Shown here piece by piece: positions 7,087 through 36,986 of a stretch of DNA of 64,000 nt (position 1 is the stretch's first letter; the number at the start of each line of letters is the position of its first letter). A model generated the notes under the pieces. The model ran no database searches, had not been told where the DNA came from, and saw only the letters and a list, made by a program, of their open reading frames with translations. The DNA comes from Massalongia carnosa (taxonomy: Eukaryota). The stretch is from assembly GCA_965645245.1 (NCBI GenBank), contig OZ287074.1, forward strand, positions 248,001-312,000. The letters run 5' to 3'. The translations under genes were made by a program, and so were the position numbers.

Positions 7087-8009
7087 CATCAAGGTTACCT
7101 TACATCAGACATTGTATTGCTACAATGAAAGAAAGGATAAAATTTCTAACGTGTCAAGGGAAGGTTATTCCTTTCATTACAATTCCATCGAGTACAGGAG
7201 TGAAGAAGGGGAGCTTTGATGGCCGGGAATCCTGCTTCCCTGAGAATAAATTGAATAATGTACACAAAGTTCGTGTAAAAAGTGTCACAATTGCTTTGAT
7301 GTCTGAACCTCAATAAACTCCTTGCATTGCTATATATTCTCAGGCGATGGTCACAACACATCGCGTAAAGCAACAACGGAATGAAAGATTAAATCGACAT
7401 GAATCAGTTCGGTTTCCGTATCAAGCGACAGAATATCAGTTGACATCAAATTTTATCCAATACCTTGCAAGACTGTGTATCGGGCAGTCCTTGTCTATAC
7501 ATGCGGATACACATCTAGAATCTGAGCAGCAATTTTACATCAGTGCTAAACGCGGCTGCTAAATTACAGTGATGATGATAACGAAAGAAAATTTCCATTC
7601 CCAGGAAGTTATGTGATTGAATCTATAATTGTATGACTTAATGATTAAAAAGTTTCAGACAATTACATAAAGATTCGATTTTGTTTTGATCTGTTCAGTT
7701 TTAGAGCTAGTGCAAAAGAGAATAAACACGAGTCTTTTAACGATCGCGTTTGACGCTGATAAACGTTTCCGTTATTATGATAATGATAATGTATTCATAC
7801 TCCGATATGTCACCGGCAGGCCGGCCCATGCGGGCAAAGCTGTCTAAGTTATGTTACATGGAAAACCTTTTTCAGGTGTAAAAATCATATCCCTTGATAC
7901 CTGTCCGATGTGACAACGGATCGACGTCGGACAGGAGACGCAGAGCGAAAATATTGTGAGAACTGTGACGCCTTGTGAAATGGGAAGAAAAAGAAAAGTG
8001 AAACTACTG

Positions 8010-11000
8010 TTGATTATACAATAGTGTAGATGCCATTGAGAATTGGGCCAGTAGACCTGTTTTCATTAGTCAAGCAGTTAATATCTTTAGCATTTTTGAT
8101 GTTTCGGTTAGCTGTTGATAGTTGTTCGTGCCAGCGGCGCGAAACATCTGTTCTCTATTGTCAATAAGTCTACAGAACATGATTACGTGTTCTGGAGTTT
8201 GTCTGTGCCAGCCTCATGAGCAGGCCGGTGAGGTGACGGCGGGACCCGTCGCTGGTAGAGGAAGTCAGCTAGACCGATCTTACCGGTGCAGATCTGTGTT
8301 GTCAGGGCGCTTTCTGCCTTTTTTAGCAGCGTGTGTATTTTGAGTCGTTTTTTGCTCAGTGAGACTGATTGCGGTATGGAGGGTGGGTTCGGTGACACGA
8401 TTTTGATATGCGCTCCACGAGTCGTTCCAGACTTTCAGCTGTCGTGCTTTAATTGTCTGCATTTGTTTTTAACGAGCCAACGCTGCTACGGAGACTTCGC
8501 GGAGATGCGCTGGGGAGGGGTCGGGCCATGGTGGGTGTGCTTTGGGTGGTTGAACGATTTTTGCGTCGATCAGTAGGTTTTTGGCCCAGGTGTTCTTCAG
8601 CTCTCCCGGAGTGGATTTTTGAAGGCGTTTACCCTTCGATTGACCTCCGGCTCGGAGTCGATGTCTGGCCTGCGCCTGTAACGTGTCGAGGTGTACATCT
8701 ATGGGTGCTATGTATGTCTCTGCTTCAAGAACTGGAATGGGAGTGGCTTTAAAGGCACCGGTTATGATGCGAAGGCAGTTGTTCTGCATAACGGAGAGCT
8801 TACTCGTTGACGTTTTTGACTTTTTGACTTCTTTGGGCATGTGCCATACGGTTGACCCGTATGTCATGACCGGACGCACTACGGCGCTGTAAACTTGCCT
8901 TGCTTTGGTGAAGGTGGCACCCCAGGTCGATGTGGAGATTTTTGTCAATGCCATGGATTGTTCGACCATTTTCTTTTGAGTTTTGCGAACGTGCGGCCCC
9001 CATTTCAATTTGGTGTCAATTTGTAAGCCTAAGACTCTAATGTCCGTTTTAGGTTCAATTTCGGTGCTTTTGCAATGTTGATGAATGCAGCCATATTGAA
9101 TCTTTTGGGATTTCTGGACAAGTGAATGAGTTCGTACTTCGTCGGGGCGAATAGGGATCCGTGTCGAGAAGCCCACTTTTCGCATTGTCTGTGTGTTGAC
9201 TCCAGAGACTTGCAATTCTCTTCGGTGCTTTTTCCGTATGCCAAAATGTTGGCATCTTCTACAAATCCTATGACACTTGTGTTTGTGCCTGATCGCTCGC
9301 ATATTCCAATAGGTCTGCATTATAGAATAGATAAAGAATGAATGAGAAAGGGGAGCCCTGTGGTATGCCAGTTCTCACCGCGAATCGTCCGATCGCTTTT
9401 CGATTTATAGCTAGAGTTGTGCTACGATCATTTAAAAAGCTGTTTAATCAATCAGTAATTCATTTCGGGATTTTTCTTTTACGTAGATTGTGCGTTAGTC
9501 TTTGATGTGAAACTGTATCAAACGCGCCGGCGACGTCCATGCTTAAAAGTGTGGCTACTTTATCTTTTCCTTGTCCTCAAATCGTGTGAACCTGTTCGGT
9601 TAGTAACTTCAGAGCTGATTCTGTAGATCTGTCCTTTCTCGCTCCCATGTGTGTCGGGTAGGAGCCGATGTTTTTCCGCTAAATAAGTTATTTTTGATCC
9701 TATGATAGATTCCATTGCTTTGCTGAGCGTGTTGAGTAATGCAATTGATCGGTAAGCCTTCGGCGTGGTGTACTTTGCTTTTTCTATTTTTCTTAATATT
9801 ATCATGTTTGCCATTTTGAAGGCTCGGGGATGGTACGAAAGTGTAACGCACGCCTGAAACAGAGGTGTTAATAATTCAACAAGTTTTTCCGCGCATGTCT
9901 TGAGTACTCTATTAGATATGCCGTCAGGACCCGGTGCTTTATCGGGCTTGAGCCGATGCAGGGCCTTGGACACTTCTGACCTGGTGATAATCATTGGACA
10001 GTGCGGCGATGCTAGATAGAAGGATCCTTCTATATCGCTTAAGTCGGCCGGTGGTGGTGCGGGAAAGAAAATGCTTTTCAGCATTTCGGCTTTCTCATCG
10101 AACGTGTCTGCTGTTTGATTATTGAACTTCAAAGTCGGCATTTTGGGTACTGTGTGACTTTTGTCTTTGGCCCATTTCGCTAGCCGCCACAGAACCCTGA
10201 GGCGTTTCGGTAGCCTTACTGATCTCTTGACGAAAATTTGTCCTCTTTGCTTTTTGGATAATTTTCTGTTTCTTGTTATTAGATTGACCAGTCCGCTAGA
10301 TCTCGTGTGTCAGACCATATACGGCGTAATTTTCGTGTGGCTTTGGTGGCAATATTGCATTCTTCTGTCCAGAAAGGCTTAGCATATTCGCTAGGTTTCG
10401 CCCATGGGACGGCTGCATTGATGACATTTTATAGGAAGTTTTGAATCGATTCTGTGTATGTATCGATCTCGACAGGTGTGCGGGGAGACGCCGGTGAAGG
10501 TGTGTGGCGCTCGGCTTCCCTTAATTTTTCCAAATTCAGAAGTTTCCATGCCCTGCGTTTACTTTTTGGTTGCGACTCGCTACCGAGTAGGATGCGGGTT
10601 GATATCGGTACGTGATCGGACGATTGATTTAATTCTGGTCTGGTCATGCAGTGTTCAAGTCTTTCAACTAGATGTTCTGACATGAAAACTAGATCGATCG
10701 TGCTAAACGTGTTTCTTGCTTCCCATGTTACGGTGCCTTTCGGCAATGTTAGCGAGAGATTGAATTCATCGATGATTTCTAACAATTGATCAGCTGCAGC
10801 ATGTTGTGTAGGTCTTGAAGGACCGTTCCAAAATGGATGATGCAGATTGAAATCACCAAGCAGGATATGATGCACGCCTTCGGTTAGCATGCTCCGAGCG
10901 GTCGATAAAGTAGAAGGGCTATCAGTGGACGAATAGGAGGCAGGAGAGGGATTGTATACGTTGTGTATATGGATCACCTCCACTACGCCTTCGGTGCATG

Positions 11001-11298: not shown

Positions 11299-11543
11299 AG
11301 GATTTCCATGGTTTCGACCACTGTGACTGGGGTGGCCTGGGTGCCTGTCGTTACTACGGATTCTGCGCGGGGTCTACCTAGCGCTGGTTTTGCTAAGGCT
11401 TTGATCATGTTTTCAGGATTCATAATGCCTATATTAGCCCAGGTTGATACTTGCTCTCCTCGGGGAGAGCCCGGTGATGAGTCGGCTGAGAGCCCCGCGT
11501 TGTGCATTTTTCTTTTCTTGCCGTTCACAATCTTCCACGTTGA

Positions 11544-12865
11544 AGACTTCGATAAGAGTCCTGGGAGTATACATTGACACTAGACTCGATTGGGCAGCGC
11601 ATTACAAGGAAATTCAGAAGAAAATGACGAGACAAACAATGGCACTGACCAAAATCGCAGCCTCAACCTGGGGGGCGACCCTCCTACGAGCCCGCCACGT
11701 GTACACAGCAGTGATACGCCCCGCCATGTCGCACGGCTCGATAGCATGGCACATGCCAGCCGAAGCAAGAAAGAAAGCCAAAGTCGAATCAAGAAGCAAA
11801 CTCGAAGTCATACAAAACAAGTGTTTACGAGTCATAGCCGGAGCGTACAAGGCTACCCCAATTGAAGTATTACAGGCAGAAACCCACATCCCTCCCTTAA
11901 CGCAACATCTAGACCGCTTACAAGCAAAAACGAGATCCAGAATCTCGAACAGCGAACAGGAAAAAATTATAAAGCAGGCGTGCAATAGAATTCAAGTGAA
12001 ACTCAGAGGTAAAAGAGGTCAATCGCGAGTCGCAGAGAAAACACCGGGAACTCGTAAACGAGAATGGGTAACAAAGATGACGAAAGACGCACCGAAAACA
12101 GTTAAACTGGATCAACCCTCTCCCCCTCCCTGGACAACGATCGACGAGGCACAGAAGAGACAACGCACAGCGCAAGTAACGACGCAGAACCAACGAGACG
12201 GGATAATAAAGAAGCACTTTGAGAATCAGTGGATCAACAAGTGGAAAGCATATCAAGCAAAACACACGTTATATCCCACGATCGCACAACAGGCGCCTAT
12301 ACACAGGAAAAGGCTTAACGCACACAAGTTACTAGACAAAGCGCAAAGTTCACTAGCAACACAGATAAGAACGGAAAAAATCGGACTGGCCAACTTTCTA
12401 TATCGGCGCAAGGTCCCAGGTGTGAACTCGGCGGCATGTCCCTGCGGAAGCCTCTTACAAACAGCCAAACATGTAATCATGTTCTGCAGACTGCACGAAC
12501 ACAGAACGCACATGCTACGAACGGCAGGCTCGTCAGACTACCGCAAGCTAATCACCGAACCCAAAGCTCTCAAAGTAGTAACCGCGTGGCTCATGCGCAC
12601 AGGTATTTTAACACAGTATTCCATTGCCACGCAACTGCTTGAACAGCAGCCGGGCAGTCTCTCTTCAGTTTGAAAAACAGGTATCGCAGATTTTCGAGAT
12701 ACAGGAATCAATCCGCGGGAGCGGCGAACCCCCGATGAAGCGGATACGCAGGAGTAGTTTTTCACCTTTGGGTTTTCTACTTATTACATAGCTTATATAG
12801 CATCTCCCGCATGGGCCGGCCTTCGGCCGGTGACACAACGGCGTAAGAATAATCAAATCAAATCA
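11544..12865 (+). mobile_element. 5'-truncated LINE of a second family (B), nested antisense in the host LINE ORF1
   Basis: 15-bp TSD AATCTTCCACGTTGA at 11529..11543 and 12866..12880; (AAATC)n tail. Uninterrupted RT-thumb/C-terminal frame to the stop at 12673 (IRVLGVYIDTRLDW...CPCGSLLQTAKHVIMFC). Confidence 0.93.
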
Positions 12866-13357
12866 AATCTTCCACGTTGACGAAATTTCGTTCGTTTGTG
12901 TAGCTGCGAGTGTCTGCGCTCCTTGAAACTGGGATAAGGGCGATTGTGACTCGATTGTGTATAGTGGAGCGCGATTTTGCATAGCAATTTCAGTTTTTCG
13001 GTTTTCAGTCTTTCTGATTTTGCATGTTGTAGATCACGCCTCGTGTCCCTTCTCTCCGCATATGGCACATCGACGGTATTGCCCCGTTGCCTTCAAGTTG
13101 CATTCTTTACTTTGATGTCCACCGGCACAGTGATCATAAGCGGCGGGATTGCGACATGATTTATCTATGTGACCATATTTCTGACAATTGAAGCATTAGG
13201 TCATGGTGCAACCACGTGTAAAACGCTCACAGTCTTTTATTTCGTAGTCCTTCATCAGGCCCTCGGTAATGAGCCGGTTGGCCATCTCGGCAGTAGCGAC
13301 CTCCATGTGTAGAGTGGAGTATGCTTTTTTCTCCCTGATGGTCTTGACTGACCCAAG

Positions 13358-14685
13358 CACGCGGGGGACAAAAAAAAAACTACACCAAAATTTAACCGGG
13401 TTCAACCCCCCACCAAAACACAAGCAATTTCCATACAATTTTGATGGGATAATCACCATTTCAACAACCAGTCATCCAATTCATTCAATCTATTCAATAA
13501 CCAGTCATTTTACCCTCACCATCCAAAACAGCTCTCAATCTATCTGGCATAGTAGACACCCGTTCATTGATAAATGCCTGGGAAACGTTCGCCCACCCCT
13601 CATAAATTAGCCCCTTGGTCGTATCATCATCCCAATGAGGATATTTTTTTAAATATTGCTTCGGGGCCTGCCAGCAATTTTCTATGGGGGCCAAATCAGG
13701 TGAACATGGACAGTTGAAATAGTGCTTCAGATCGTTGTTCTGCTTCCAAGTGCGTACAATGTTTGATTTGCCTGGTCCATGTCCAGAATCACCGTCTTCT
13801 TCTAAGACGAAATCGTGTTTTGCTTCAATCCAGGGCTTCACAATAGGCTCCAATATAGAGTCGATATAGACTCGTTGACTCATCTTTCCATTGGAGTTTC
13901 CAGGAACTCTGTAAAAGTAGATATCTGACTTGAAGTCATGACCTGCAGCAGCCCAACAGTGATGTCTCTTCTTGGCGGCCTCGTCTGGTTCATCTGCTTC
14001 TTGAATACAATCATGACAATAACGTTCACCTAATCTTCGTATGATGCGTAATTTGCCCTGAGGTCCCCATCCAAAGTGCACTTCGTCACTAAATCGAACT
14101 TGTTTCCAGTCTTCTGCATTTGGATATCTAGAAAGCATAGCATCTGACCACTTCATACGAAGCTTTCTTGTCTTCTCGTTCACCCATCCCTTTCTGCACG
14201 CAATGCATTTGTGATAATCCATGGTGCCCATGATTCGTTGAATGGTTTTGCCACTGCAGTCTAGGCCTACTTCGAAGCCCAATTGCTCCCATGTAAGAGC
14301 GCGCGCCTCCATACCTTCTTCTTCCAATAGCCGTTCCATTTCTCTAATCAATTTAGGCGTAACAATTTTGTGACGCGCACGAGCTTCAGAAACATCGGAA
14401 TTATTATGATGACGGCGTGATGAGGCTCCTTCACGCAGGTATGCATAGCCCCTCGTACGTTCCACATCAAATGTGCGAAAAACATCCTCTTTGTGATAAG
14501 AAATGCCTTGCTTTTCGCAAAATTCAACGGCTCCCTGAATTTTAGCTTTGGTAGGAGTCTCGATATGTTTAGAATTCATAATAATGATAATTATCCCATC
14601 AAAATCGTATGTAAATTGCTTGTGTTTTGGTGGGGAGTTGAGCCCGGTTAAATTTTGGTGTAGTTTTTTTTTTGTCCCCCGCGTG
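13358..14685 (-). mobile_element. Tc1/IS630-like DNA transposon, 1328 bp, ~100-bp TIRs
   Basis: TIRs 13358..13460 and 14583..14685 begin CACGCGGGGGACAAAA; flanked by the direct repeat CCAAG (13353..13357, 14686..14690). Confidence 0.93.
13494..14579 (-). CDS. Intact Tc1-like transposase (DD37E), 361 aa
   Basis: WKQVRFSDEVHF, LEEDGDSGHG and SPDLAPIENCW; 37 residues between the second D and the E; no stops. Confidence 0.92.
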   Translation of the reverse strand: MNSKHIETPTKAKIQGAVEFCEKQGISYHKEDVFRTFDVERTRGYAYLREGASSRRHHNNSDVSEARARHKIVTPKLIREMERLLEEEGMEARALTWEQLGFEVGLDCSGKTIQRIMGTMDYHKCIACRKGWVNEKTRKLRMKWSDAMLSRYPNAEDWKQVRFSDEVHFGWGPQGKLRIIRRLGERYCHDCIQEADEPDEAAKKRHHCWAAAGHDFKSDIYFYRVPGNSNGKMSQRVYIDSILEPIVKPWIEAKHDFVLEEDGDSGHGPGKSNIVRTWKQNNDLKHYFNCPCSPDLAPIENCWQAPKQYLKKYPHWDDDTTKGLIYEGWANVSQAFINERVSTMPDRLRAVLDGEGKMTGY

Positions 14686-15409
14686 CCAAGCTACTTTGAT
14701 GATCTTGAGGTCAGGATGCAGGCGTGCGTTGGCGGCCTGCAGGTACGCGATAGCAGTTGATTGATTGGCCACTTTGATGTTTTCCACCTTGATTCCATTT
14801 GCCCTTACGGTGAAGGTACGAGTATGCACCGCTGCGGAGGCGGCCATCATGCAAGTTCAGTCGGTCTTTTCCTGCAGGGTTTTCTTTGCCTTCAATGACT
14901 TCGTGTGAATCCTTATGTCGTCATTTAACAAGCGCGACACTCGTATTCCTTTCGCTTCATTTTGCAACGTTTCTACCAGCTCTTTGGTTGGCATCAGCTT
15001 TACTTTTTCTTTATCTGCATTCTTCGTTATGTGAACAGTGATTTCTCGCGCTTCCTTCGGTGTAGGTATTTTGTCCTTTGAAGTCGGTTGAGACTTGACA
15101 TTTTTGTTCATCACGACCTCGCCCCGTGGCGGCAGCGGCGTAGCTTTGAGAAGTTGTATCCTTCCGTTATATGCGTGTCAGTGTTTGTTGAATAGATTGT
15201 AGAGTGTCATTGAGGATGTTGGGCGCCTTTGCAACTTCGTCGTCGATCCACTCCTCGAATATTCAATGTTTCCGTTATTATATTATTATATTTAATTCTT
15301 TTTTCAATAATCTCGTTTCGTACAATATAAGTTTTTGATACTACGTCTCTAGTCATTAGTATGTAGTCACTGAGTATGACTGAAAAACAAGGTACCGCCA
15401 ATGAGGTTC

Positions 15410-23790: not shown

Positions 23791-24962
23791 ATGAAAATCT
23801 TATGCTCACTCTTCGTTGTGCTTTTATTTCACACCGTCGATAACGTCTTTTCCCAGTATCTGGACAATACTGGTACAGCGTTACCTGTCGATCAACCTGG
23901 TCTAGGTCCAGACAACAGTTTTGGGACTTTGGCATTCTTGGGTTCATTCTCGCCAGATAGGAGCGCTTTAGCGACAGACAGCACTGTAGAAAAACACCCT
24001 GGGCAACGCAGCGATGGGCAAAATGACGTTGAAGCCCCCAATATGGACTTTCCCCTCTGGCAAAGCACGTACCTGACAGCGAACAATGAAGGAATTGGTA
24101 TGCAGAATAGCGAACTCAGGCCACAGAATACCGAGGGCATCAATGGCGGTGTTACCTCCGATCTCACAGAGGAAGCCCTCATTCAAGATGGACGTCCGGG
24201 CGTTTTCGAAGCGCCAGGGGAAGGTGTATCAGGCACCAACACCCAACACGATACTTCATCTAAAGTCGACGTGCAAACACCAAGCGATACCGAATCTTCC
24301 TTTACGCTCAGTGCTCGTCCGGCAGATTGTCACTCAGACATTGAGGCTAGCAACTCAGTGGCTGCCAGATCCGACTTATCCAGCTCCGGCTCAATCCACC
24401 AGAAGCGCCAAGAAGTAGCTGAGAATTCAAAGCTTGTCAACCCGCCCACCGGTGATATATGCATACCCCCTGTGGACGATGAAGAGCCTACCACCAAAAA
24501 GGAAACGCGCTGGGTGTATACTTGTCCTCCGCTGCCAGATAACCCCAAGAAAAGTATGGAGCTTGTTTGTTGCAAGTATTTTACACCAGACAAAAAGAAC
24601 GCACAGGGCTGTGTGAGCTGTAAGATTCCCCTTGTCTTATGCATTTATGCAGAAGCGTGCTATTATTCTATCTTTGGGTTCAGACGACTTGGGTCGAAAG
24701 TAAGGGCTGAGACTAACGCGCGAGCAGACATTCCTCGCCGGTGGGGTCCTAATGATCCGTGTTATCAGAGTCCGCAGGTGATATGCTGCAAAACTATGAA
24801 GGTACTCGTCCACTTGAATTAAATCGTCCAGAAAATATAATTCCAATCTGATTGCTAACATAACTTACTTGGCTTACTCAGGATGGGGTTGGGACCAGTT
24901 GCCAGTCACCTCAAAAGAAACCGTTTGGTCAGCCATCACCTGCAAAGAAAAACGCTCAGTAG
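23791..24962 (+). CDS. Secreted protein with acidic linker and C-terminal 8-Cys (C-CC-C-C-CC-C) domain
   Basis: Signal peptide MKILCSLFVVLLF; introns 24620..24727 and 24802..24881; stop TAG at 24960..24962. Confidence 0.72.
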
Positions 24963-27900
24963 TACTTCATGAGCAGCGTTGCGTCGAGATCGGGTGAGGA
25001 GAATGCAAGAGGAATTTGGATTTTGCAGCGGTATCGTTACCACGCTTACTCCGAGAGCTTACGAATCTGATGGTATTTCGCGGAAGCTTTCATTAAGTAT
25101 TTATCCAGGGTTTTTCCCTGCAGTATTGTTAACCGCTCCTATACCTCGTTTCGGGTTTTAGCGGGGTTCTGGTGTTGTATTCTTCGGCGTTATGGCAACA
25201 TTACGTACTTTTTCTGACTTTTTAGCCTTGGGTTTCTTCGGGATACTAAAATGCTAGAGGAGAGACGTCAAGATTTTGGGGCAGGCATCTGGAGAATTTC
25301 TTGGCCAACGAAGCGCAGCACCACACTCGGTCTTACTTTTTTTTGTCCTAAAGATTTCAGATGAACACCAGGCAGTTGTCTCTTGCAGTCTCTCTTACCG
25401 GTTTTGAATTACCCGTGTGATCCTTCGTTTAAGCGAGACACCAAATTCGTATCAAACACAGGACTTCTTTATTCACTTTTTCGGTTGCACACATTATATC
25501 TAACTCATGGAAGGCCCATTAACAGATATCTATGACTCTATGCGTGTCAACCAACCAGTGGCGTGTATATATGGAATGAAAAAGGCGCATGGCTCTGATA
25601 CGATATCCATACATCTCTCTAAATACCTCGCAGCGTTGTCACCATGCCAATCGTTCAGACAGAGTTTCCACGCCTGTATCTTGTCCACAGTAACACCACT
25701 TAATCATCGTCGCCCCTGCCTCAGTTGAGATCGGCACATTTTGGTCCCGAAAGGCGGGATAGTCCTCGGTAGCAACATTAGAGGCAAATCACAAGGCTGC
25801 ATTTGTTCTCGCCTGATGGTTTATTACTTAGTGTCGGATGTTAGGTACGCGGGGAGTCCACGGAATATTGGACGAAAACCTGCAGAGCGGTGGGGACCTT
25901 TGTTGCCTAGACCTGGTCCGTGTCGCAATGAGTCCTTTTGCCCAAGCAAAGTGCAGGGAGAAAGCGCTGATTCTTCGAAGCTTTTGCGGACGCGCGGACA
26001 TAGATAATGTGTGTTTCACCATCGAGCACCAAGTAGGTAGGAACTCTATACTCTACATTTATGGAGGAACGACGAAAGCCTCGAAACACGTGGCAGATGT
26101 TTCATGTTTCGTTGCGTTGGGAAGAGCCAAGAATAAAGCAGCCCTAAAACAAAATCCAGCAACTAGACCTAACAAATAACCTTTGGTGCCTCGGTATAAC
26201 CCAAGTCTGGGCTGTAACAAACTCTGTATGCCTTCGAGCCATGAACCGACGACGGCAACATCCCTGTTCCCGGCTTCGTGATCCTTCAGCTGAACCGAGC
26301 TCTTTTTAAAGCTGATTTTGAAGATTGACAGCGAACAATACGCAAGTGATCCTCGTTTAAACATCCCGGTTTGCTGTACCCAGAGACCTTGATAAGGAAA
26401 ACTCAGCTAGCCCCTCTTTGGCTGAACCTTATTCGGAACCTAAACTTGCAAGCGTGTTATGATGTACCTTGGCTACCGGAGTGCGTTCGGCAGTCAAACC
26501 CAAGGGCGGATTTTCCATGTGATTACCCATTGGAGACTCCGGCAACTCCAGTAAAAAACAAACACAAAAGTCTTTAGGAGCTATTTTAGCCCAGAAGGAT
26601 GAGCGGCATGGTGAGTATTGGTCGTGAAGACGTTAAGGCTTCAAGATGCCGGAGGAAGTTTCAGCCTTATTTTATGGTTTCACCCGGAGTACTCCGTACA
26701 TCAATATCATCAATAAGTCGAAATCCGTATCCGAATGCAGGAGTACAGCATAGTCAGTCAAATACCAAAAAAAAAACCAAGATGACGGGGGCTTTTGCTA
26801 AGAGTATGGCTGGATTTTGGGCCAATTTAAAAAACAAAAAATCAAGAATTGATATCATGAGGAAACCGTAGGTGGACCAGAAGATTAGATAATACCAGCC
26901 TCAGTCTAACCGTATTGGTTACTTAAGACATTTAGCGGTGTCTTAAGCAATCTAGGCTAAACTATTATCACCTTAGCAGAAGGTGATCAGTTAAAGGGAA
27001 AGACTGCTATGTAGCAACCTCTGCAGCCTACGCATCATCGTCATACATGTCATTTATTATATAGCCATAGTCATAGTCATATACCTATTTCAACAGTTGT
27101 TATCATCCTCATGGGTGTAAATAGCAGCTCTGAACGATAACGACGGTTGGGGTTCTGTTCAGATACCCAAATTCGTGAATTCGTAGCAAGTAATCTGCCT
27201 CTTAAAGCAATACAGAAGACTAGCAAGCATATCCTCGAATGGAAAATGGTACTTGATTGATCCCCATGGTACGAGCATGTCCGGTTTGCAGATATCAGAC
27301 AGATGGACTTAGCAACAGTGGTTGGTAAATGGCAGGCTATATGTAGTAGCAACGAACAGTTTCTCGGAGCATCCGCATCACAACTCCTGAAATCCATACC
27401 CACTATCCAGCAACAGCGGTTCCCACAACGACAAGTCATACGCTCAAGAAAAAGAGGAACCGTCAGACCCTACTCTAGCACTGAAATCTATCTGGCGAAC
27501 CGATTTGGCTCTGAACTCGGCATGAGACAGCTTTGACAGCTAAGAAAAGGCCGCCCATCTTCTTCAGGGCATCTGTGGATTCATTTAACGCGCCTTAATC
27601 GTGCAGAGATTCCGGATGGGGGTTTCTGGAGATCGGGAGATTCGGTGAACGAAATAGTCTACGTGGTGTTAATGAGCTTTGGGAAAGAACGGATATCCGG
27701 TCTTTTTGATTTTGGGGTCAGGGAGGTTTTTTCTTTCGGCTTCGTCGCGAAACACTGAAAGGTGTTTCAGACATGGTTTATTCTTCCCATGGATTTGTAT
27801 TATTTCGGCCATAGAAGACGAGAGGCCTGACGCAGCATTGAAAGCACTAGCAAGGTGGTGGGTGGCAATGGTCGTCAGTATCGTCGTGGATCTTTCATGC

Positions 27901-28223
27901 TGCGTTAGCCAAAGAAGGATTTTTGGAAGTCGGATCGTTTCAGTTTGCATCGTGTTAAGCAGCTTCTTGGTTTATCTTGGTAGTTATTAAAATATATACC
28001 CATGATGCCTGTTCCCTCATATACCTATTATACACCAAGATTTCCCTTCTCGGACCAGCATTTCCGCTGTCCGCTTCTCCATGCCGGCTTTTCCCTTCTT
28101 CCTCTCAAAGTAATGTGGCTCCGCCACTCGATTGATAAGTAGAGACAAATACTCATCAGCGCCGCGATTTGGAAGAAGTGATCCATTGTTGGTTAATATT
28201 CTGGTTTTTGCATGCAGCTGCAG

Positions 28224-29231
28224 CTATGCGGCTGAGCCAACGGGTAGTTCATGACTTCTACCAGGACCTAGCTCGTGATTTTGCTCTGCTGCATTCATTT
28301 CCAGGGAAGTTGAACGCTGGCCTAACGATTTCTCTATCCGATGTCCCCCTGCAGTGATTTGGTCTTGCAGTTCCCTTAATTTTCTATTGGTGCGCCGACG
28401 GTATCTGATAAACCCCAGTAACAAAAGTATGAAGGCTAGCGAGACAACTGAAACGGGTGCACCAACCGCGGCACCAAGGTTTGTGTTTTTTGACTTTGAG
28501 GCGGAAATGACCGTCGGTGTCGCAGCAGTAGAAGCGGCTGAAGCTGAACTCGACTTTGGCAGCTGAAGACTCGACGGTGGAGGGGTTGATGAAGAAGCAG
28601 TAGATCGAGAAGCTAGGGTATTTGATGAATGATCAACATCAGACGGATATTGGCCACAGAATTAAATGCTTACATGGTGCCGATGTACTTTGACTAGTCG
28701 TTGACGCCAATCTGCCAGGGAAGGGAATCGTGGATACCAACGCACGCGGGCTCGGGAAGGTAACGTTTCCCTTAGAGCAGTCGCAAGCTACGTTGCTATC
28801 TTGACAGCACCACGAATCGGCATGAGGATCTTTGCAGTCATCCATCACCCCTGCGCCATCCTTTTTATCTAGATTCGGGCAAGGAATCAGACCTAACCAA
28901 AACGCGAACGCTTGCGCAAACCAAGAGGTGGGAGCATACTCAGGCAAAAGTTAGGGCATGCGGACGACTTCCATGTTACGTCGGTGCAGCTTCCCCGAAC
29001 ATATCCAGAGCCACCATCCCAACACAGCTTGTCGGACAGACAAGTGGCTTGTGGACCACAACAGAAACTGTCTTCAGTGCCGTTTCCTAGGCAAGGCTGA
29101 TCCGCGAAGAGTCTGGTTCCATCGGGGAAATAGCAAAGGGCAGCGACCTTCAGGCCAAGAAAGATGAGAAGACAGGCTTGGGTCGATATCCTCCACCGGA
29201 CAAGCTGCGTCGAGAGGGACATGCCGGACAT
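28224..29231 (-). CDS. Mid2-like single-pass cell-surface protein (Cys-rich ectodomain, S/T-rich stalk, TM helix, basic tail)
   Basis: CYFPDG...CCG..ATCLSDKLC...RGSCTDVTWKSSACPNFCL; SWCC; Ser/Thr stretch; LGAAVGAPVSVVSLAFILLLLGFIRYRRR. Two introns. Confidence 0.8.
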
Positions 29232-30079
29232 GGCCTCTCGCGGGAATTATGACGGTCAATCGGCTTAATGGCGCAAAAAATCCAGAAAAGCTGCTGCTTG
29301 TGTGGTGAAGTTGCCATGATGAGAGTCAAGCCGGAAAGGAGGCACAGCCTCTAAGCTCATCACCAACAGTCTTTAGAAGATATTAAAGGATCCGATACCC
29401 TATCCACGCGACGTATGCCACCTATGCAACCGGCGGCGAATGGGAGCTGACCCTTATGGGGACTAGATAGGGGCTAAGCCAAAGGGGGATTAACTTATGC
29501 TGGCTGAAACGTAGATCTTATCTAGTCATATCTCTAGTGAACGCTTCTTTACTCTGTTGGCTGATAGATTATCCAACATCGCAAGGCGAACCGAGCCAAG
29601 CGATATACAACTAGATGCATGGACTCAAATATATAAACTCCTAGAGCGCTAAATATTTTCACTCCCGTCTTGACGACTTCTTTATCGTCTTGAATCATTA
29701 ATTTAGATTCTTATTGCTTTTCAAATACTTTCTCTGACATTTATATTAGTTCAAATTATGTACATGATTATACACAAACAGAATTATTGAAAGCGCTGTT
29801 GGGGAAAAATTAAAGAATTTCGTAAGACTTCAAAAGAAACGCGACTCAGTCGATCGATAGGAAAATATCACGACGAGATGTTCATCTTTCTTCATCAATC
29901 TAGATATGTTTACTCCATTCTCCCGGAAAACCCGTTTCATTGGATGACTATATCTTGCAGTCGTCAGCTGCAACGGTGTCTTTCCATCCAAGTTTCGTGC
30001 CTGACTGTTTGCTCCATATTTGAGTAGTAATTGCACCACGGCTCGATAATTATTTCGGGCGGCAGTATGCAATGCCGTG

Positions 30080-30296
30080 ATCGGTCCTCCTCCTTCTACA
30101 CCATCGGTCCTCCTCCTTCTACACCATCGGTCCTCCTCCTTCTACACCATCGGTCCTCCTCCTTCTACACCATCGGTCCTCCTCCTTCTACACCATCGGT
30201 CCTCCTCCTTCTACACCATCGGTCCTCCTCCTTCTACACCATCGGTCCTCCTCCTTCTACACCATCGGTCCTCCCCCTTCTACACCATCGGTCCTC
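30080..30296. repeat. 23-bp tandem repeat ATCGGTCCTCCTCCTTCTACACC, 9 full copies plus a partial copy
   Basis: Unit starts at 30080, 30103, 30126 ... 30287. Confidence 0.97.
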
Positions 30297-30734
30297 ACCA
30301 CGGAGACGCCAAAGGCCTCACCGTGGGGCGACCGTCAAACATAGATTTGCTCCCATCTCTTCGCATCAAAACAATGCTAATTTAACGCGTTCACACGCGT
30401 CGCAGACGTACGTACGGAAGAGGATTCGAAGGCCAACCGCCGGAGGGTCGCATGCGCGCGTCCCTGCACCATGCTTCTAAGGGTTCAAGTCCCTTTATGC
30501 AGTCATCAGCTGGAAGAAGATGTGGACAAAAGGAGCCGCATCACCCCCCACCCGGGCACAGTCGACACGTGTTCTAGCTCCTGAGAGTTCAAGTCTCCCC
30601 ATGCAGTCATCAGCTGGAATCAACAGAACGCGGACAGGCACCGGGGCGAAGCCACCTCAAGAAAACTCCATCACGGAGCGGAATAACAATATCTCATTTA
30701 ACAGGCCCGGCCTGTTAAATAAAATCGAGGAAAA

Positions 30735-30850
30735 CACAGAGTCACAGAACACATAGTCATAAATCACACAGTCACAAAGCACACAGTTACAAAGCACAGT
30801 CACAAAGCACGCAATCACAAAGCACACAGTCATAAAGCACACAGTCACAG
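30735..30850. repeat. Degenerate ~15-bp tandem repeat (CACAGTCACAAAGCA), about 8 copies
   Basis: Directly visible in the sequence. Confidence 0.85.
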
Positions 30851-31990
30851 ATCAATAACATGTCCCTGTGAAGGGGGTTCTGCGGGGGCTCGTTAAGGCA
30901 GATCTGCACCCCGTTAATATCGGAGTACATATTTTTAGAGGTTCAAGTCCTTTCTAGCAGTCATCAGCTGAAAATAATGCATTTTGACAAGGGCATGGTG
31001 TGGATTTGACACGGGTAGACCTCGATGGATCACAAAACGAATGAAAAGAGTTCAGCGGAACTTAGTTAATATTGTTCTCGAAGATCTCGTTAATAAGATT
31101 TTCATAGACCTCGTTAACAACGTTCGATCATACTCTTAAAGGTTCAAGTCCTTTCATGCAGTCATCGGCTCAGAGCTAGAGACGTATGACACGGGTCAGC
31201 TATGTCTATCACACGGGTCTCCTTCGTCTACAACACGGAGCCCTCCGGCTGAAAGAAATAAAACATATATACACATAGTGTGGGGTCACACCCTGCACGA
31301 TACAAGGGATTTGGGTTATGAAAACCATCCGACTGATGGCTACCGTGAGCAACACGGCCCGAACCGGGGTCGCACCGGGGATGGTGGAGGCAACCTAGTC
31401 ATCAAATAGGACACCTTTGGGACAAGAAGAGGGCAATATACGAGGAACCCGTTAATTGATAACAGTCTAGGCCCTGAGCTAATAGACGAATTTCAAACGA
31501 GCACCCCTCCGAGTTGTCCTCGACTCGTTTTGGTTAGTAGGGACGGAAAATCGGTACTATACTGCTTGGTCAGGAGCATAGTGGCCGAAATCCCCGCGAG
31601 ACATGGTCGGTTCATAAACGGGAGACCTTTATGAATAACGCGAAGTGGGCGTAACAAACCCATGAGGCGTGGTATGCAATGGCGGCCACCGTACGGAAAC
31701 CCTCTGCATAGCCCGAGAGGACAGTATGCGCATGTCGGTGTATATAGAGCAGGGAATGTCTATCTCGCTCGTAACGAGACCCGTCGGTTCGCCGGCGCTG
31801 GGGCTACGGCTAGACTCGCCCTTGATATATGCTTGAGGAGTAAACTGGGTTTGGCCTAGGCGAAAGGGACGTCGTTCACCCCAATCGTAGAATTCATCAA
31901 TAGTCTTGGGCCGTAAAACGCACCAGTGAGATGAACAAAAACTCGGATAGAGACTTCACGAAGGAGATGTCAGCTCTATTTTATCATTCT

Positions 31991-34211
31991 TAGCCACACT
32001 TTTAAGCATGGACGTCGCCGGCGCCTTTGATACAGTTTTGTCACGGTTCAACCACATCCACCCAAGGCCAATCAAAGGAAAGTACGGCATCTGCCGGCGC
32101 ACTAACCGCTTCCGTTACTCAACCCTTTTAGCAATCATAGGGGCAATGAACGGAGGTCTGAAAGGACTGAAATGGACGCATCGGAACGACCTTCTAAAGC
32201 AAACACAAATGGGGACAAAGAGCAGAAAGACTGTTTGACCAAACTGTTCACTTATTGATGAAGACACAAGCAGCTGGATCGGGCCAAGCGATTATCTATA
32301 TAGATTCCTAGAGAGGGCACCCTTTGCTTGTTTCCTTTCTGCATCTTTGATATTTTCTAGTGCATAGCTTCCCAGTAGGTAGTCAATTCCACATCCTGGT
32401 TGAACCGTCACACGTTTCACATCAAAGACTAACGCACAATCTACGTAAAGAAAAATCCCGAAATGGATTACTGATTGGTTAAACAGCTTTTTAAATGATC
32501 GTAGCACAACTCTAGCTATAAATCGAAAAGCGACCGGATGATTCGCGGTGAGAACTGGCATACCACAGGGCTCCACTCTCTCATCCATCCTTTATCTATT
32601 CTATAATGCAGACCTATTGGAAATATGTGAGCGACCAGGCACAAACACAAGTGCCATAGGATTTGTAGACGATGCCAACATTTTGGCATACGGAAAAAGC
32701 ACCGAAGAGAATTACAAGACTCTGGAGTCAATACACAGACAATGCGAAAAGTGGGCTTCCCGACACGGATCTCTATTCGCTCCGACGAAGTACGAACTCA
32801 TTCACTTGTCTAGAAATCCCAAAAGATTCAATATGGCTGCATCTATCAACATTGCAAGCACCGAAATTGAACCAAAAACGGACATTAGAGTCTTAGGCTT
32901 GCAAATTGACACCAAATTGAAATGGGAACCGCACGTTCGCAAAACGCAAAAGAAAATGGTTAAACAATCCATGGCATTGACAAAAATCTCCACATCGACT
33001 TGGGGTGCCACCTTCACCAAAGCAAGGCAAGTTTACAGCGCCGTAGTGCGTCCGGTCATGACATACGGGTCAACCGTATGGCACATGCCCAAAGAAGTCA
33101 AAAAGTCAAAAACGTCAACGAGCAAGCTCTCCGTTATGCAAAACAACTGCCTTCGCATCATAGCCGGTGCCTTTAAAGCCACTCCCATTCCAGTTCTTGA
33201 AGCAGAGACATACATAGCACCCATAGATGTACACCTCGACACCCTACAGGCGCAGGCCAGACATCGACTCCGAGCCGGAGGTCAATCAAAGGTCATTTCT
33301 TCCGCATGCAGCAAAATAGTTAACAAACTCCGAGGCAAGGCAGGTCGCAAACGCCTTCAAAAACCACTCCGGGAGAGCTGAAGCACACCTGGGCCAAAAA
33401 CCTACTGATCGACGCAAAAATCGTTCAACCACCCAAAGCACACCCACCATAGTCCGACCCCTCCCCAGCGCATCTCCGCGAAGTCTCCGTAGCACCGTTG
33501 GCTCGTCAAAAACAAATGCAGACAATTAAAGCACGACAGCTGAAAGTCTGGAACGACTCGTGGAGCGCATATCAAAATCGCGTCACCGAACCTTCCATAG
33601 CCCAATCAGTCCCACTGAGCAAAAAACGACTGAAAATACACACGCTGCTAAAAAAGGCAGAAAGCGCCCTGACAACACAGATCTGCACCGGTAAGATCGG
33701 TCTAGCTGACTTCCTCTACCAGCGACGGGTCCCCGCCGTCACCTCACCGGCCTGCTCATGTGGCTGGCACAGACAAACTCCAGAACACGTAATTATGTTC
33801 TGTAGACTTATTGACAATAAATAACAGATATTTCGCGCCGCTGGCACGAACAACTATCAACAGCTGACCGAAACATCAAAAACTCTAAAGATATTAACTA
33901 CTTGGCTAATGAAAACAGGTCTACTGACCCAATTCTCACTGGCATCTACACTATTGTACAATTAACAGTAGCTTCACTTCTCTTTTCCTTCTTATCTCAC
34001 AAGGCGTCACAGTTCTCACATGATTTTCGCTCTGCGTCTCCTGTCCGACGTCGACCCGGTGTCACATCGGACAGGTATCAAGGGATATGGTTTTTACACC
34101 TGAAAAAGGTTTTCCATGTAACATAACTTAGATAGCTTTGCCCGCATGGGCCGGCCTACGGCCGGTGACATATCGGAGTATGAATACATCGTCATCATTA
34201 TCATCATCATC
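31991..34211 (+). mobile_element. LINE family A 3' portion (RT to 3' tail), degenerate
   Basis: LLSMDVAGAFD, GIPQGSTLS, GFVDDA, CSCGWHRQTPEHVIMFC; highly similar to the reverse complement of 7779..9557. Confidence 0.92.
32039..32412. mobile_element. Probable solo LTR (374 bp) inserted in the LINE RT
   Basis: TG...CA ends with terminal inverted repeat TGTCACGGTTCAACCA / TGGTTGAACCGTCACA; 5-bp TSD AGTTT/CGTTT. The other LINE copy reads GATACAGTTTCACATC uninterrupted. Confidence 0.8.
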
Positions 34212-34239
34212 ATGCAATGCCGTCTCTCGATCTCGATCT

Positions 34240-36080
34240 TTCGCGTGCACATCAACCCCTTTTTCTAATAACAGCTATACTATTTGTCCCGATCCTCTCT
34301 TGGCTGAAAGGAAAAGCGCGTCATTTCCAAGGTCATCTTTTGCTTTGCTGTCTGCCCCATTTTCTAGTAACAGCTTCGTTATGGTTTCGTATCCGTATCT
34401 GGCTGCACATAGAAGTGGTGTTTTTCCTCCACGACCTCGAGTTTCTATATCTGCCCCTTTTTCTAATAACAGCTGTACTATTTGTCGCGAGCTACCCCTG
34501 GCTGAAAGGAAAAGCGCGTCATTTCCATCGTCATCTTTTGCTTTGATGTCTGCCCCCTTTTCTAGTAACAGCTTCACCGTGGGTTCGTCTATGAGTTTGA
34601 CTGCAAGAAGAAGTGGTGTTATTCCTCTGTAACCTCGAGTTTCTATGTCTGCCCCTTTTTCTAGTAACAGCTGTACTTTTTCTGCCACTTTTTCTGCCAC
34701 TTTTTGTCTCGATCGTGTCTTGATTGAAAAAGAAAGCGCTTCTTCTCCACAGTTATCTTTTGCTTTGATGTCTGCCCCCTTTTCTAGTAACAGCTTCACC
34801 GTGGGTTCGTCTCCGAGATAGGCTGCAATAAGAAGTGGTGTTCTTCCTTCGGGACCTCGAGTTTCTATGTCTGCCCCTTTTTCTAATAATAGCTGTACTA
34901 TTTGTCCCGATCTTCTCCCGGCTGAAAGAAAAAGCGCGTCATTTCCATCGTCATCTTTTGCTTTGATGTCTGCCCCCTTTCCTAGTAACAGCTTCACCAT
35001 GGGTTCGTCTCCGTAACAGGCTGCATATAGAAGTGGTGTTTTTCCTTTGTGACCTCGAGTTTCTATGTCTACCCCTTTTTCTAATAACAGCTGTACTATT
35101 TGTCCCGATCCTCTCATGACTGAAAGAAAAAGCGCGTCTTTTCCATCGTCATCTTTTGCTTTGATGTCTGCCCCCTTTTCTAGTAACAGCTTAATCATGG
35201 TTTCGTCTCCGTGATTGGCTACATATAGAAGTGGTGTTTTTCCTCCGCGACCTCGAGTTTCTATGTCTGCCCCTTTTTCTAATAACAGCTGTATTATTTG
35301 TCGCGATCTACTCCAGGTTGAAAGGCAAAGCGCGTCATTTCCAGCGTCATCTTTTGCTTTGATGTCTGCCCCCTTTTCTAGTAACAGCTTCACCGTGGGT
35401 TCGTCTCCGAGATAGGCTGCAATAAGAAGTGGTGTTCTTCCTTCGGGACCTCGAGTTTCTATGTCTGCCCCTTTTTCTAATAATAGCTGTACTATTTGTC
35501 CCGATCTTCTCCCGGCTGAAAGAAAAAGCGCGTCATTTCCATCGTCATCTTTTGCTTTGATGTCTGCCCCCTTTTCTAGTAACAGCTTCATCATAGTTTC
35601 GTCTCCGTAATTGGCTGCATATAGAAGTGGTGTTTTTCCTCCGTGACCTCGAGTTTCTATGTCTGCCCCTTTTTCTAATAACAGCTGTACTATTTGTCCC
35701 GATCCTCTCCTGACTGAAAAGAAAAGCGCGTCATTTCCATCGTGATCTTTTGCTTTGATGTCTGCCCCCTTTTCTAGTAACAGCTTCATCATGATTTCGT
35801 CTCCGTATCTGGCTGCAAGTAGAAGTGGTGTTTTTCCTCCGTGACCTCGAGTTTCTATGTCTGCCCCTTTTTCTAATAACAGCTGTATTATTTGTCGCGA
35901 TCTACTCCAGGTTGAAAGGCAAAGCGCGTCATTTCCAGCGTCATCTTTTGCTTTGATGTCTGCCCCCTTTTCTAGTAACAGCTTCATCATGGTTCGGTCT
36001 CCGTAATTGGCTGCATATAGAAGTGGTGTTTTTCCTCCGCGACCTCGAGTTTCTATGTCTGCCCCTTTTTCTAATAACAG
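34240..36080 (-). repeat. 198-bp (two-ankyrin) coding tandem repeat, 9 units
   Basis: Near-identical DNA units; a block at about 34801..34980 recurs at +594 bp. Confidence 0.93.
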
Positions 36081-36986
36081 CTGCACGATGGGCGTGTGGC
36101 CATGTTTTACAGCATAATGCAACGCCAAGTTTCCATCGCTATCAACGGACATCGCGTTGACCCCCGAATCAAGACATAACCGTACCAGGTCTTCATATCC
36201 CTTCATTGAGGCCAGATGCAGTATTGTTTTTGCATCTTCAGATTTTGTTGCAACGTCAGCCCCCTGTTCTAACAACAGCCTCACCATTAAGGTGTTTCCT
36301 TTTTCTGCCGCTATTAGCAACTGGTTTTGTCCCATAGAGTTTTCATGCTGTTTTAATGACTCCCGGAACAACAACGTTTGAGTTTCATCTTGCTTTAGTT
36401 GTTTTTCATCTGCATTTCGCATATCGTGCGAAGCGCACATATGTTTTTGCAAATTATCCTTTCGCCAGGTCCGGAATTTACAGCTGGGCCATTTGCAATA
36501 GAATCTTGACTTGATGACTGTGTGACTAACTTTGTGACGATTAAGATCGCTGCGGAGTGCAAAGCCTCGACTGCACTCATCGCACTTGTGTGGCTTCGTG
36601 TGTGTTTTGCGATGGCGCCTGCGACAAGACAGGTCAATGTAATGATTATATGATAGCAGGTGGAGATATACGTATAATCCCCGCGCCTTGTATATTTCTT
36701 AGAACAGAATTCACATGTAATTAGTCCTCTCACTTGGGAGGACTGGCTATTCATATCCGCATTTACGCCTCTGAAACAAGAGAGTGGTATTTCCGTAGGA
36801 CTGAGTGTGGAATAACTTTCAAATCATAAAATGGAAGATGATAAAAAAGCGAAGATAACTAGCTATCTTCTTTGTCTCAAGTAACTATTTTATATTTCGA
36901 GGTCACCTTGTACAAAAATTCGTCCAGCTAGAGTGTTGGGCAGTCTTAATGCCCTTTCATCCCAGCCTTGACGGGCAAGTGGGTGC

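Follow-up and report, generated by a model that had tools for sequence, protein, structure and literature searches.

What are four short, colinear motifs doing between positions 30474 and 31175 of a 64,000-nucleotide stretch of DNA from Massalongia carnosa (assembly GCA_965645245.1, contig OZ287074.1, positions 248,001 to 312,000; this whole stretch is called the window below)? A sequence-only reading had described them as 43-nt copies with a T-arm-like loop and covarying stems, and had proposed a processing signal, an RNA polymerase III (Pol III)-related signal or a cassette boundary. The window is fungal nuclear DNA, and each motif is very probably the apical domain of one of four hairpin modules in the sense 5' leader RNA of a fungal long interspersed nuclear element (LINE) inserted at 30079-34211. 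With less assurance, they are considered cis-acting structured RNA modules of that leader, which probably serve as protein-binding platforms.

A repeat search of the window recovered one repeat family with four direct copies of 46 nt (30470-30515, 30574-30619, 30928-30973, and 31129-31174), in which copies 2, 3, and 4 were 80, 78, and 78% identical to copy 1 and the spacings were 104, 354, and 201 nt, respectively. The pattern GTTCAAGTC-N7-GCAGTCATC matched the window four times, always on the + strand and with 0 mismatches, against a mean of 0.06 in shuffled sequence and at least four matches in 0 of 100 shuffles. The four gap-free copies of the earlier description were thus found again, and so was their shared core, with the loop and GCAGTCATC(A/G)GCT invariant in the gap-free alignment. 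The inner 5-bp stem, said to vary and yet stay paired, was paired in 19 of 20 cells across the four copies, with compensatory G-C/A-T swaps at two positions. The C at 31171 in copy 4 is private to the window copy, and sequencing-run contigs of the multicopy family have G there. A scan of the 64 kb with a covariance model (R1) returned only the four copies at 60.7-65 bits, and as these are part of the model, the scan informs only on the absence of further copies. The next match, with 13.7 bits (E = 0.16), was located at 29929-29979 and contains GCAGTCGTCAGCTG; it was taken as chance, as it lies outside the target-site duplication (TSD) of the LINE and within an ankyrin coding frame.

Relatives were obtained by scanning metagenome contigs, which are unlabelled, with an 18-base pattern. 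Related units were carried by about 45 of the 63 loci identified, and about 18 were chance matches in unrelated, bacterial-looking DNA. The covariance model gave 68 full matches in the 26 relatives searched and one partial match of 26 bits only in 16 of the chance loci. The motif is therefore conserved outside this copy, and the relatives show a conserved unit larger than the 43 nt first proposed. A typical unit reads ..GGGACTCGTTAATACTGGCTTT - P1 - GGAGGTTCAAGTCCTCT - NNN - GCAGTCATCAGCTG - P1' - ..AACACGGGCAAACCC.. and is composed of stems described in the following. The spacers between the window copies had been called unrelated, which holds only in part, as they are occupied by outer arms of the hairpins, with CGTTAA on the 5' side and ACACGG on the 3' side of copies 3 and 4.

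For the structural comparison, 79 fully flanked units were reduced to 63 distinct 66-nt cores and these to 45 rows, one per group within 6 differences (18 near-duplicates removed). The 45 rows comprise 4 units from the window and 41 from the metagenome and align without gaps over 53 columns. Across the ten pairs of stem P1 and the five of stem P2, 77.8% of cells were paired, compared with 66.0 +/- 1.1% in shuffled alignments (reached in 0 of 500). Double-change cells numbered 155 against 67.9 +/- 9.6 in the shuffles (again reached in 0 of 500) and 21-61 in slid registers; the rows are related paralogues or orthologues, which inflates the shuffle significance, while the slid controls preserve this relatedness. 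Structured RNA with covarying stems, as initially suspected from four copies, is well borne out by this larger alignment.

P1 is a covarying stem of variable sequence, whose four proximal pairs switch between T-A and C-G in step (142 of 180 cells Watson-Crick). P2 is a 5-bp hairpin continuous with the 5' strand of P1. It was paired in 96% of cells over the 45 apices, changed on both sides at all five pairs and closed by G-C in 43 of 45 units. With its G-C closing pair and the loop UUCAAGU, P2 mimics the T-arm of tRNA, and 42 of 45 units match the T-loop consensus GUUCNANNC. According to the part of PMC5340967 available, GUUCNANNC within a hairpin is the target code of Pus4/TRUB1, and the available part of PMC10424219 gives the layout of T-loops as G53-C61 and U54...A58. 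The loop sequence GUUCAAGUC conforms to this layout and fits GUUCNANNC. The 5-bp stem, G-C closing pair and 7-nt loop (UUCRANN in the units, U-U-C-A-A-N-N in the portions of PMC5340967 and PMC10424219) are common to both. Differences are that the LINE units have no acceptor, D, or anticodon arms, that the adjoining stem continues on the 5' strand instead of the 3' strand as in tRNA, and that modification is a prediction here. The earlier impression of a T-arm without the rest of a tRNA is consistent with these counts, as ARAGORN detected 0 tRNAs in the 64 kb.

On the 3' side of the apex, a 14-nt stretch, GCAGUCAUCAGCUG, is near-invariant. It can pair as CAGU[CAUCA]GCUG (P3, 4 bp; 96% paired), which would make the apex a three-way junction. 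P3 is supported by a C-G to G-C swap in two units of locus L056 and by three one-sided changes that preserve pairing. RNAalifold, given 15 full units of about 120 nt and no structure, returned an unknotted rod in which 14 of 28 pairs had compensatory changes. From the base upwards, an outer helix is followed in this rod by the conserved helix CUCGU/ACGGG, which includes a conserved U.G, and then by the asymmetric loop UAAUAC/AC, P1, P2, and P3. The conserved helix and its loop form a module, and in longer units P1 extends as a rod with one to three copies of this module (CUCGUUAAUAC/ACACGGGCA). Folds of single sequences were long nested hairpins for L018, for a 183-nt unit and for window unit 3, and only partly so for unit 4. 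Window units 1 and 2 are short hairpins. Two or three modules are present in units 3 and 4, with CGTTAA at 30891, 30912, 31088, and 31112 and ACACGG at 31009, 31189, 31211, and 31233. The segment 31440-31500 looks like a fifth unit minus its apex.

The pairing pattern also bears on which strand folds. The non-Watson-Crick cells of P2 were 28 G.U and 5 A.C, and those of P1 (positions -6 to -9) 19 and 8, while the conserved U.G of the module helix becomes a C.A mismatch on the opposite strand. Because G.U outnumbers A.C and U.G turns into C.A opposite, the sequences favour the + strand, that is the sense RNA of the LINE, as the strand that would fold.

The place of the motifs within the LINE is given by the features below.

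30067..30078, no strand: left TSD, 12 bp, ATGCAATGCCGT; an identical 12-mer stands at 34212-34223.
30079..34211, + strand: LINE (a non-long-terminal-repeat retrotransposon of the apurinic/apyrimidinic endonuclease (APE) type), internally deleted, inserted within an ankyrin-repeat gene; recognised by its TSD and RVT_1.
30079..31990, + strand: non-coding 5' leader of the LINE, about 1.9 kb; no Pfam match in its frames and high-copy in sequencing runs.
30080..30342, + strand: the very 5' end of the LINE, made of a 23-nt unit repeated in tandem about 10 times; from the repeat search, with a similar short repeat in L009 and L015.
30469..30521, + strand: apical domain of unit 1 (P1, the T-arm mimic P2, and GCAGTCATCAGCTG); 65 bits with model R1.
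30573..30625, + strand: apical domain of unit 2; 60.7 bits, P2 paired at 4 of 5 positions.
30731..30849, + strand: 15-nt tandem repeat in the interval between units 2 and 3, from the repeat search.
30880..31030, + strand: unit 3, a complete rod-shaped hairpin in which two CGTTAA/ACRRGG modules are nested; apex 30927-30979, 63.6 bits, minimum free energy (MFE) fold one long nested hairpin.
31060..31245, + strand: unit 4, with CGTTAA modules on the 5' side and three ACACGG repeats on the 3' side; apex 31128-31180, 63.5 bits, MFE fold only partly rod-like.
31185-31228, within unit 4: 22-nt repeat (D4), from the repeat search.
31267..31421, + strand: conserved leader block including the hairpin GGGGTCACACCCC; 69-75% identity to at least 12 loci.
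31529..31853, + strand: second conserved leader block, probably non-coding; 70-75% identity to more than 20 loci.
31991..32038, + strand: reverse transcriptase (RT) coding resumes (..MDVAGAFDTV..) after the internal deletion; 97.9% identical to LINE copy A, 9557-9510.
32039..32413, no strand: insertion within the RT region that resembles a miniature inverted-repeat transposable element (MITE) and has terminal inverted repeats of 16 nt; the LINE resumes at 32414, and other copies are uninterrupted at 32038.
32414..34211, + strand: C-terminal half of the RT, 3' untranslated region (UTR) containing the hairpin GGCCGGCC..GGCCGG, and a tail resembling (TCA)n; from RVT_1 and copy comparison.
34212..34223, no strand: right TSD, 12 bp, a perfect match to the left copy.

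Because the 12-bp TSD brackets 30079-34211 and RT sequence resumes at 31991 and again at 32414, this segment is one LINE insertion, in which an internal deletion fuses the leader to the middle of the RT and all four motifs lie in the sense-strand leader. With 97.9% identity, the segments 31991-32038 and 32414-32460 match the RT region of an inverted LINE copy (9466-9557); they translate to ..LLSMDVAGAFDTVSHQRLTHNLRK.., and the open reading frame (ORF) at 32548-33381 is the C-terminal part of the RT and matches RVT_1. On both sides, the LINE is flanked by a minus-strand ankyrin-repeat gene, with an Ank fragment directly upstream. In 81 of the 84 stop-to-stop frames of at least 45 aa across 24818-32498 (the three inside the 23-nt repeat were omitted), no Pfam match was found apart from this flanking fragment. 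The units are high-copy along with the rest of the LINE: 30330-32400 was covered along its full length by 3344, 313, and 109 contigs of three sequencing runs with 85-100% identity, and a single 8.2-kb contig of a fourth run spans 30330-31995. The runs matching 30330-32400 include ones labelled lichen metagenome. Two other element boundaries were rejected. Contigs stop at 30341, which had been considered as the left end, and the TSD and the relatives place the 23-nt repeat within the LINE; 31995, considered to close a separate non-autonomous element on its right side, is where this LINE passes into its own RT region.

The same order of parts was found in relatives, in which the units lie upstream of the LINE ORFs and in sense in four out of four sources with a recognisable LINE ORF. 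L009 carries four units (spacings 148, 233, and 349), followed by a block homologous to window 31529-31750 and by ORF2, which starts at 3420 with an endonuclease (EN) domain (Exo_endo_phos_2, 4e-18) 41% identical to the window EN. In L015 and L062, RT lies downstream of the units on the same strand, and the RT of L062 is 54% identical to the C-terminus of the window RT. A short 5' repeat in L009 and L015 is followed by a GGCCTCACCG block common with the window, and about 400 nt ahead of unit 1 are retained in the multi-unit leaders of distant relatives. Leaders hold one to four or more units, either dispersed or in 183-nt tandem arrays; in one metagenome family of 16 loci, three tandem units occurred in 3 loci, two in 11, and one in 2. 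Downstream of the units, 31267-31853 has 67-75% identity to leaders at metagenome loci, and the hairpin GGGGTCACACCCC follows the last unit in L005, L014, L018, L025, and L031. As protein, the block 31635-31856 has just 39% identity to L056, which is why the second leader block was treated as non-coding. The opposite-strand frame of 31635-31856 compared with L056 gave nothing, and a 149-aa frame of L009 and a 170-aa frame of L001, compared as a possible common ORF1, did not align. At about 1560-1640 of L009, fewer copies of a different short repeat were observed at the LINE 5' end, so that the repeat in this place is variable.

Several points weigh against an RNA role of the units. Transcription of the leader is deduced only from its membership in a retrotransposon, and the LINE copy in the window is dead, with a deletion and a MITE. 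The invariant loops and the CAGCTG and ACGCGT boxes could equally be protein-binding sites on DNA. Thermodynamically, the sense strand was more stable than the antisense in just 30 of 45 units (Wilcoxon p = 0.07), 66-nt segments folded singly on both strands had z-scores of -0.22 to +0.97 and thus were no better than shuffles, the full units reached z-scores of -2.6, -0.6, -1.0, and -0.9, and P2 was present in the MFE fold of just 13 of 45 units. P3 is almost invariant and weakly tested, with change on both sides only in the two related L056 units. To these may be added the inflated shuffle significance mentioned above and the conjectural nature of any binding partner.

If the units do work as RNA, they would act in cis as multivalent protein-binding platforms. 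Their preferred role, held tentatively and at somewhat less than an even chance, would be to label the full-length RNA of the LINE as its own for ribonucleoprotein (RNP) assembly. The protein bound might be encoded by the element, or be a host protein that handles T-arms (Pus4, Trm2 or similar), or both. RNA export and internal translation initiation may be seen as sub-variants that are not separable from RNP marking. Self-selection for the RNP is favoured because of the analogy with box B of brome mosaic virus, a mimic of the T-psi-C loop that, according to the available portions of PMC4083346 and PMC5869524, RNA1 and RNA2 carry in their 5' UTRs and RNA3 in its ~190-nt recruitment element, and whose deletion abolishes 1a-mediated recruitment of the viral RNA. 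Both are T-psi-C-loop mimics atop an extended, bulged stem-loop, which for box B lies in a 5' UTR or intergenic region (same portions of PMC4083346 and PMC5869524); box B acts in cis to select the parasite's RNA for the replication complex, whereas protein binding by the LINE units is a prediction only. The two further differ in that one belongs to an RNA virus with the replicase protein 1a and the other to a nuclear retrotransposon, and in that the number of units per LINE leader ranges from one to four or more, with internal-loop modules in repeated copies and an additional arm of 14 invariant nt. In yeast, box B is modified like a T-arm. A bolder proposal, that the units represent an undescribed modular RNA class (a three-way junction with a T-loop cap, carried by a rod of repeated internal-loop modules) by which a lineage of fungal LINEs borrows host tRNA machinery and marks its transcript for the RNP, is rather unlikely as a whole. 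If it were true, host enzymes of T-arm modification and tRNA or mRNA export factors would be exploited, and with these units the viral box B would gain a first counterpart among retrotransposons.

Could the units instead work as DNA, or as RNA in a different task? As internal-promoter "monomers", they would be blocks of transcription factor sites that drive or insulate transcription from the first base, with the B-box/TFIIIC-like GGTTCAAGTCC, the E-box CAGCTG, ACGCGT, CGTTAA, and ACACGGG as sites and the hairpins as incidental, an explanation that is compatible with an RNA role. It is established knowledge that a LINE leader needs an internal promoter, and the tandem monomers of the mouse L1 5' UTR are likewise repeated leader units whose number varies between copies, as does the number of 183-nt units (1-3 in tandem) among the 16 loci of one family here. 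In addition, ACGCGT occurs twice near the 5' end (30385 and 30395) and within the units of many relatives, and loops and junctions are conserved far beyond the need of a simple hairpin. However, compensatory change at 14-15 stem pairs and the 28:5 excess of G.U over A.C are unexpected of sites in double-stranded DNA, and the stem sequences vary freely with pairing kept. The mouse monomers are described as DNA promoter units and are not known to have covarying RNA structure, whereas here the stems covary, the units may be dispersed, and their spacers differ. We regard a DNA-level promoter role as unlikely. A low probability is also given to a nuclear-export element for the unspliced LINE RNA, similar to the constitutive transport element (CTE) of type D retroviruses, or to an internal ribosome entry site (IRES) platform. 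The rod with one to three repeats of one internal-loop module would suit either, and ATG is not depleted in the ~1.9-kb leader (28 vs 26.7 expected; 25 vs 28.8 in L009), so that scanning from the cap to the ORF looks implausible. The CTE is a rod-like hairpin with a repeated conserved internal loop in an unspliced retroelement RNA, but it is situated near the 3' end, has no T-loop cap, and is similar by shape only. No Rfam family was matched by sequence, and the present evidence does not separate export or IRES function from RNP recruitment.

Self-cleavage had been suggested by the minus strand, which reads CUGAUGA like a minimal hammerhead, and this motif, common to the hammerheads of Penelope-like elements and retrozymes, was found in 32 of 45 units. 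A minus-strand hammerhead, a new ribozyme class, or an RNase P/Z signal cutting at every unit is nevertheless highly improbable. Junction nucleotides are indeed highly conserved between covarying stems, retroelements are known to have structured RNA at or within their 5' ends, as in the ribozymes of other LINEs (that of R2, which is similar to that of hepatitis delta virus (HDV), and Pr77 of L1Tc), and a T-arm mimic could attract tRNA-processing enzymes. However, no hammerhead or other ribozyme was matched (with thresholds of gathering score for the window, E<=10 for 30000-31700, and E<=1 for ten relatives), just 6 of the 45 units have GAAA on the minus strand, CUGAUGA has no stem II beside it but lies about 7 unpaired nt away from the sole available hairpin, and the pairing pattern favours the plus strand. 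For RNase P, the connection of P2 to P1 runs through the 5' strand and thus mirrors the acceptor/T-arm stack read by this enzyme. The units are also internal and multiple, so that efficient cleavage would destroy the heritability of the leader: sequence upstream of a cut would be missing from the copied RNA and could not pass to new copies of the retrotransposon, whereas leaders with several units are conserved. This last point, which also speaks against any processing signal, is an argument and not a measurement. Clustered Pol III-transcribed small RNA genes or heads of tRNA-derived short interspersed nuclear elements (SINEs) are less probable again. GGTTCAAGTCC does equal the B-box/T-arm consensus, and the sole Rfam alignment was a 17-nt T-arm part of tmRNA (11.5 bits; gathering 47). 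Against this, no tRNA model was matched, no A-box-like site (at most 1 mismatch to the consensus) lies in 30400-31175, the nearest being out of reach at 31574, runs of T4-T5 at 30932, 30982, and 31099 would terminate Pol III, and all units lie within a TSD-flanked LINE and, in relatives, upstream of LINE ORFs. The probability of integron-like recombination sites or cassette boundaries is close to nil. Dissimilar segments are indeed separated by direct repeats, but the whole array is the leader of one TSD-bearing retrotransposon, multi-unit leaders recur in related LINEs, no recombinase gene is nearby, and the contigs of four sequencing runs had no motif-to-motif joint, the listed joints lying in the 15-nt tandem repeat and elsewhere.

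Rfam gave no family at gathering score in the whole 64 kb, and with the covariance models of Rfam 15 no family was matched in the ten relatives at E<=1 apart from the tmRNA part. For tRNA, there was no match in the window at gathering score or in 30000-31700 at E<=10, and the scans proposed for hammerhead and tRNA models thus returned no hit. An HDV-type ribozyme was not matched by Rfam under the same two settings, without a descriptor search, and the consensus fold is unknotted. Two sub-threshold matches, SpR10 sRNA at 31510-31553 (+, 24.8 bits, E = 0.007) and snoR32_R81 at 31044-31139 (-, 23.5 bits, E = 2.8), are far below gathering and probably due to chance.

The preferred reading of the units as RNA platforms of the LINE leader touches two open questions, namely the choice that LINE proteins make of their own RNA (cis preference), and the export and translation of long LINE leaders that are unspliced and rich in AUG. 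To our knowledge, LINE 5' leaders have so far yielded very few conserved RNA structures. In the literature searched, the 14-mer did not occur as DNA, RNA, or reverse complement, and searches on fungal LINE leader structure and on tRNA-like elements with non-LTR retrotransposons found no relevant description. Structured cis-elements of retroelements and T-arm mimics are already known, and their combination in a LINE leader appears undescribed. The leader element offers clear covariation, an exact T-arm mimic, countable modules, and many natural variants, and the covariance model can be used to annotate this LINE lineage in fungal and lichen genomes. It also calls for caution, as B-box/T-arm-like or CUGAUGA repeats in fungal DNA rich in transposable elements are not necessarily SINEs or hammerheads.

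Further observations were made on the leader and its surroundings. Apart from the two ACGCGT palindromes of the window, the same palindrome was found in or beside many units of L002-L060, L009, L011, L044, and L056, often as part of stems; we take it to be akin to the MluI cell-cycle box. The ATG counts given above refer to 30079-31990 in the window and to 1603-3419 in L009, and undepleted ATG is odd for a 5' UTR of 1.8-1.9 kb that has to be crossed before the ORFs. A near-perfect 17-nt palindrome, ATCTCATTTAACAGGCC / GGCCTGTTAAATAAAAT, is situated at 30691-30725 between unit 2 and the 15-nt tandem repeat.

The MITE-like element measures 375 bp, has the terminal inverted repeats TGTCACGGTTCAACCA / TGGTTGAACCGTCACA and is absent from the other genomic LINE copies; about 4 nt of LINE sequence overlap across it, which suggests a short target duplication. 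The ankyrin-repeat gene that holds the LINE (minus strand, 29833-30078 and 34224-36452) has a large ORF of 725 aa, which is built of 198-nt tandem repeats in 9 copies with 65-100% identity. The 3' part of the LINE (32447-34157, +) is 94-97% identical to the inverted copy at 7818-9479 (-), 23-25 kb away, so that the activity of this family is recent. Another subfamily is represented by a third LINE (11444-12851, +), which has only the 3'-terminal hairpin block in common (77 nt, 81%).

The remaining ORFs of the window fit a filamentous ascomycete, with a Zn2Cys6/Fungal_trans_2 factor, PRMT5, a DEAH helicase, and ankyrin repeats, and transposons are abundant (pogo/Tc5, Tc1-like, Mutator-like (MULE), and APE-type LINEs). 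Among them, a Tc1/mariner-type transposase ORF at 13494-14579 is flanked by 104-nt inverted repeats (94%) at 13357-13460 and 14583-14686, and the DNA transposon at 13357-14686 is apparently complete.

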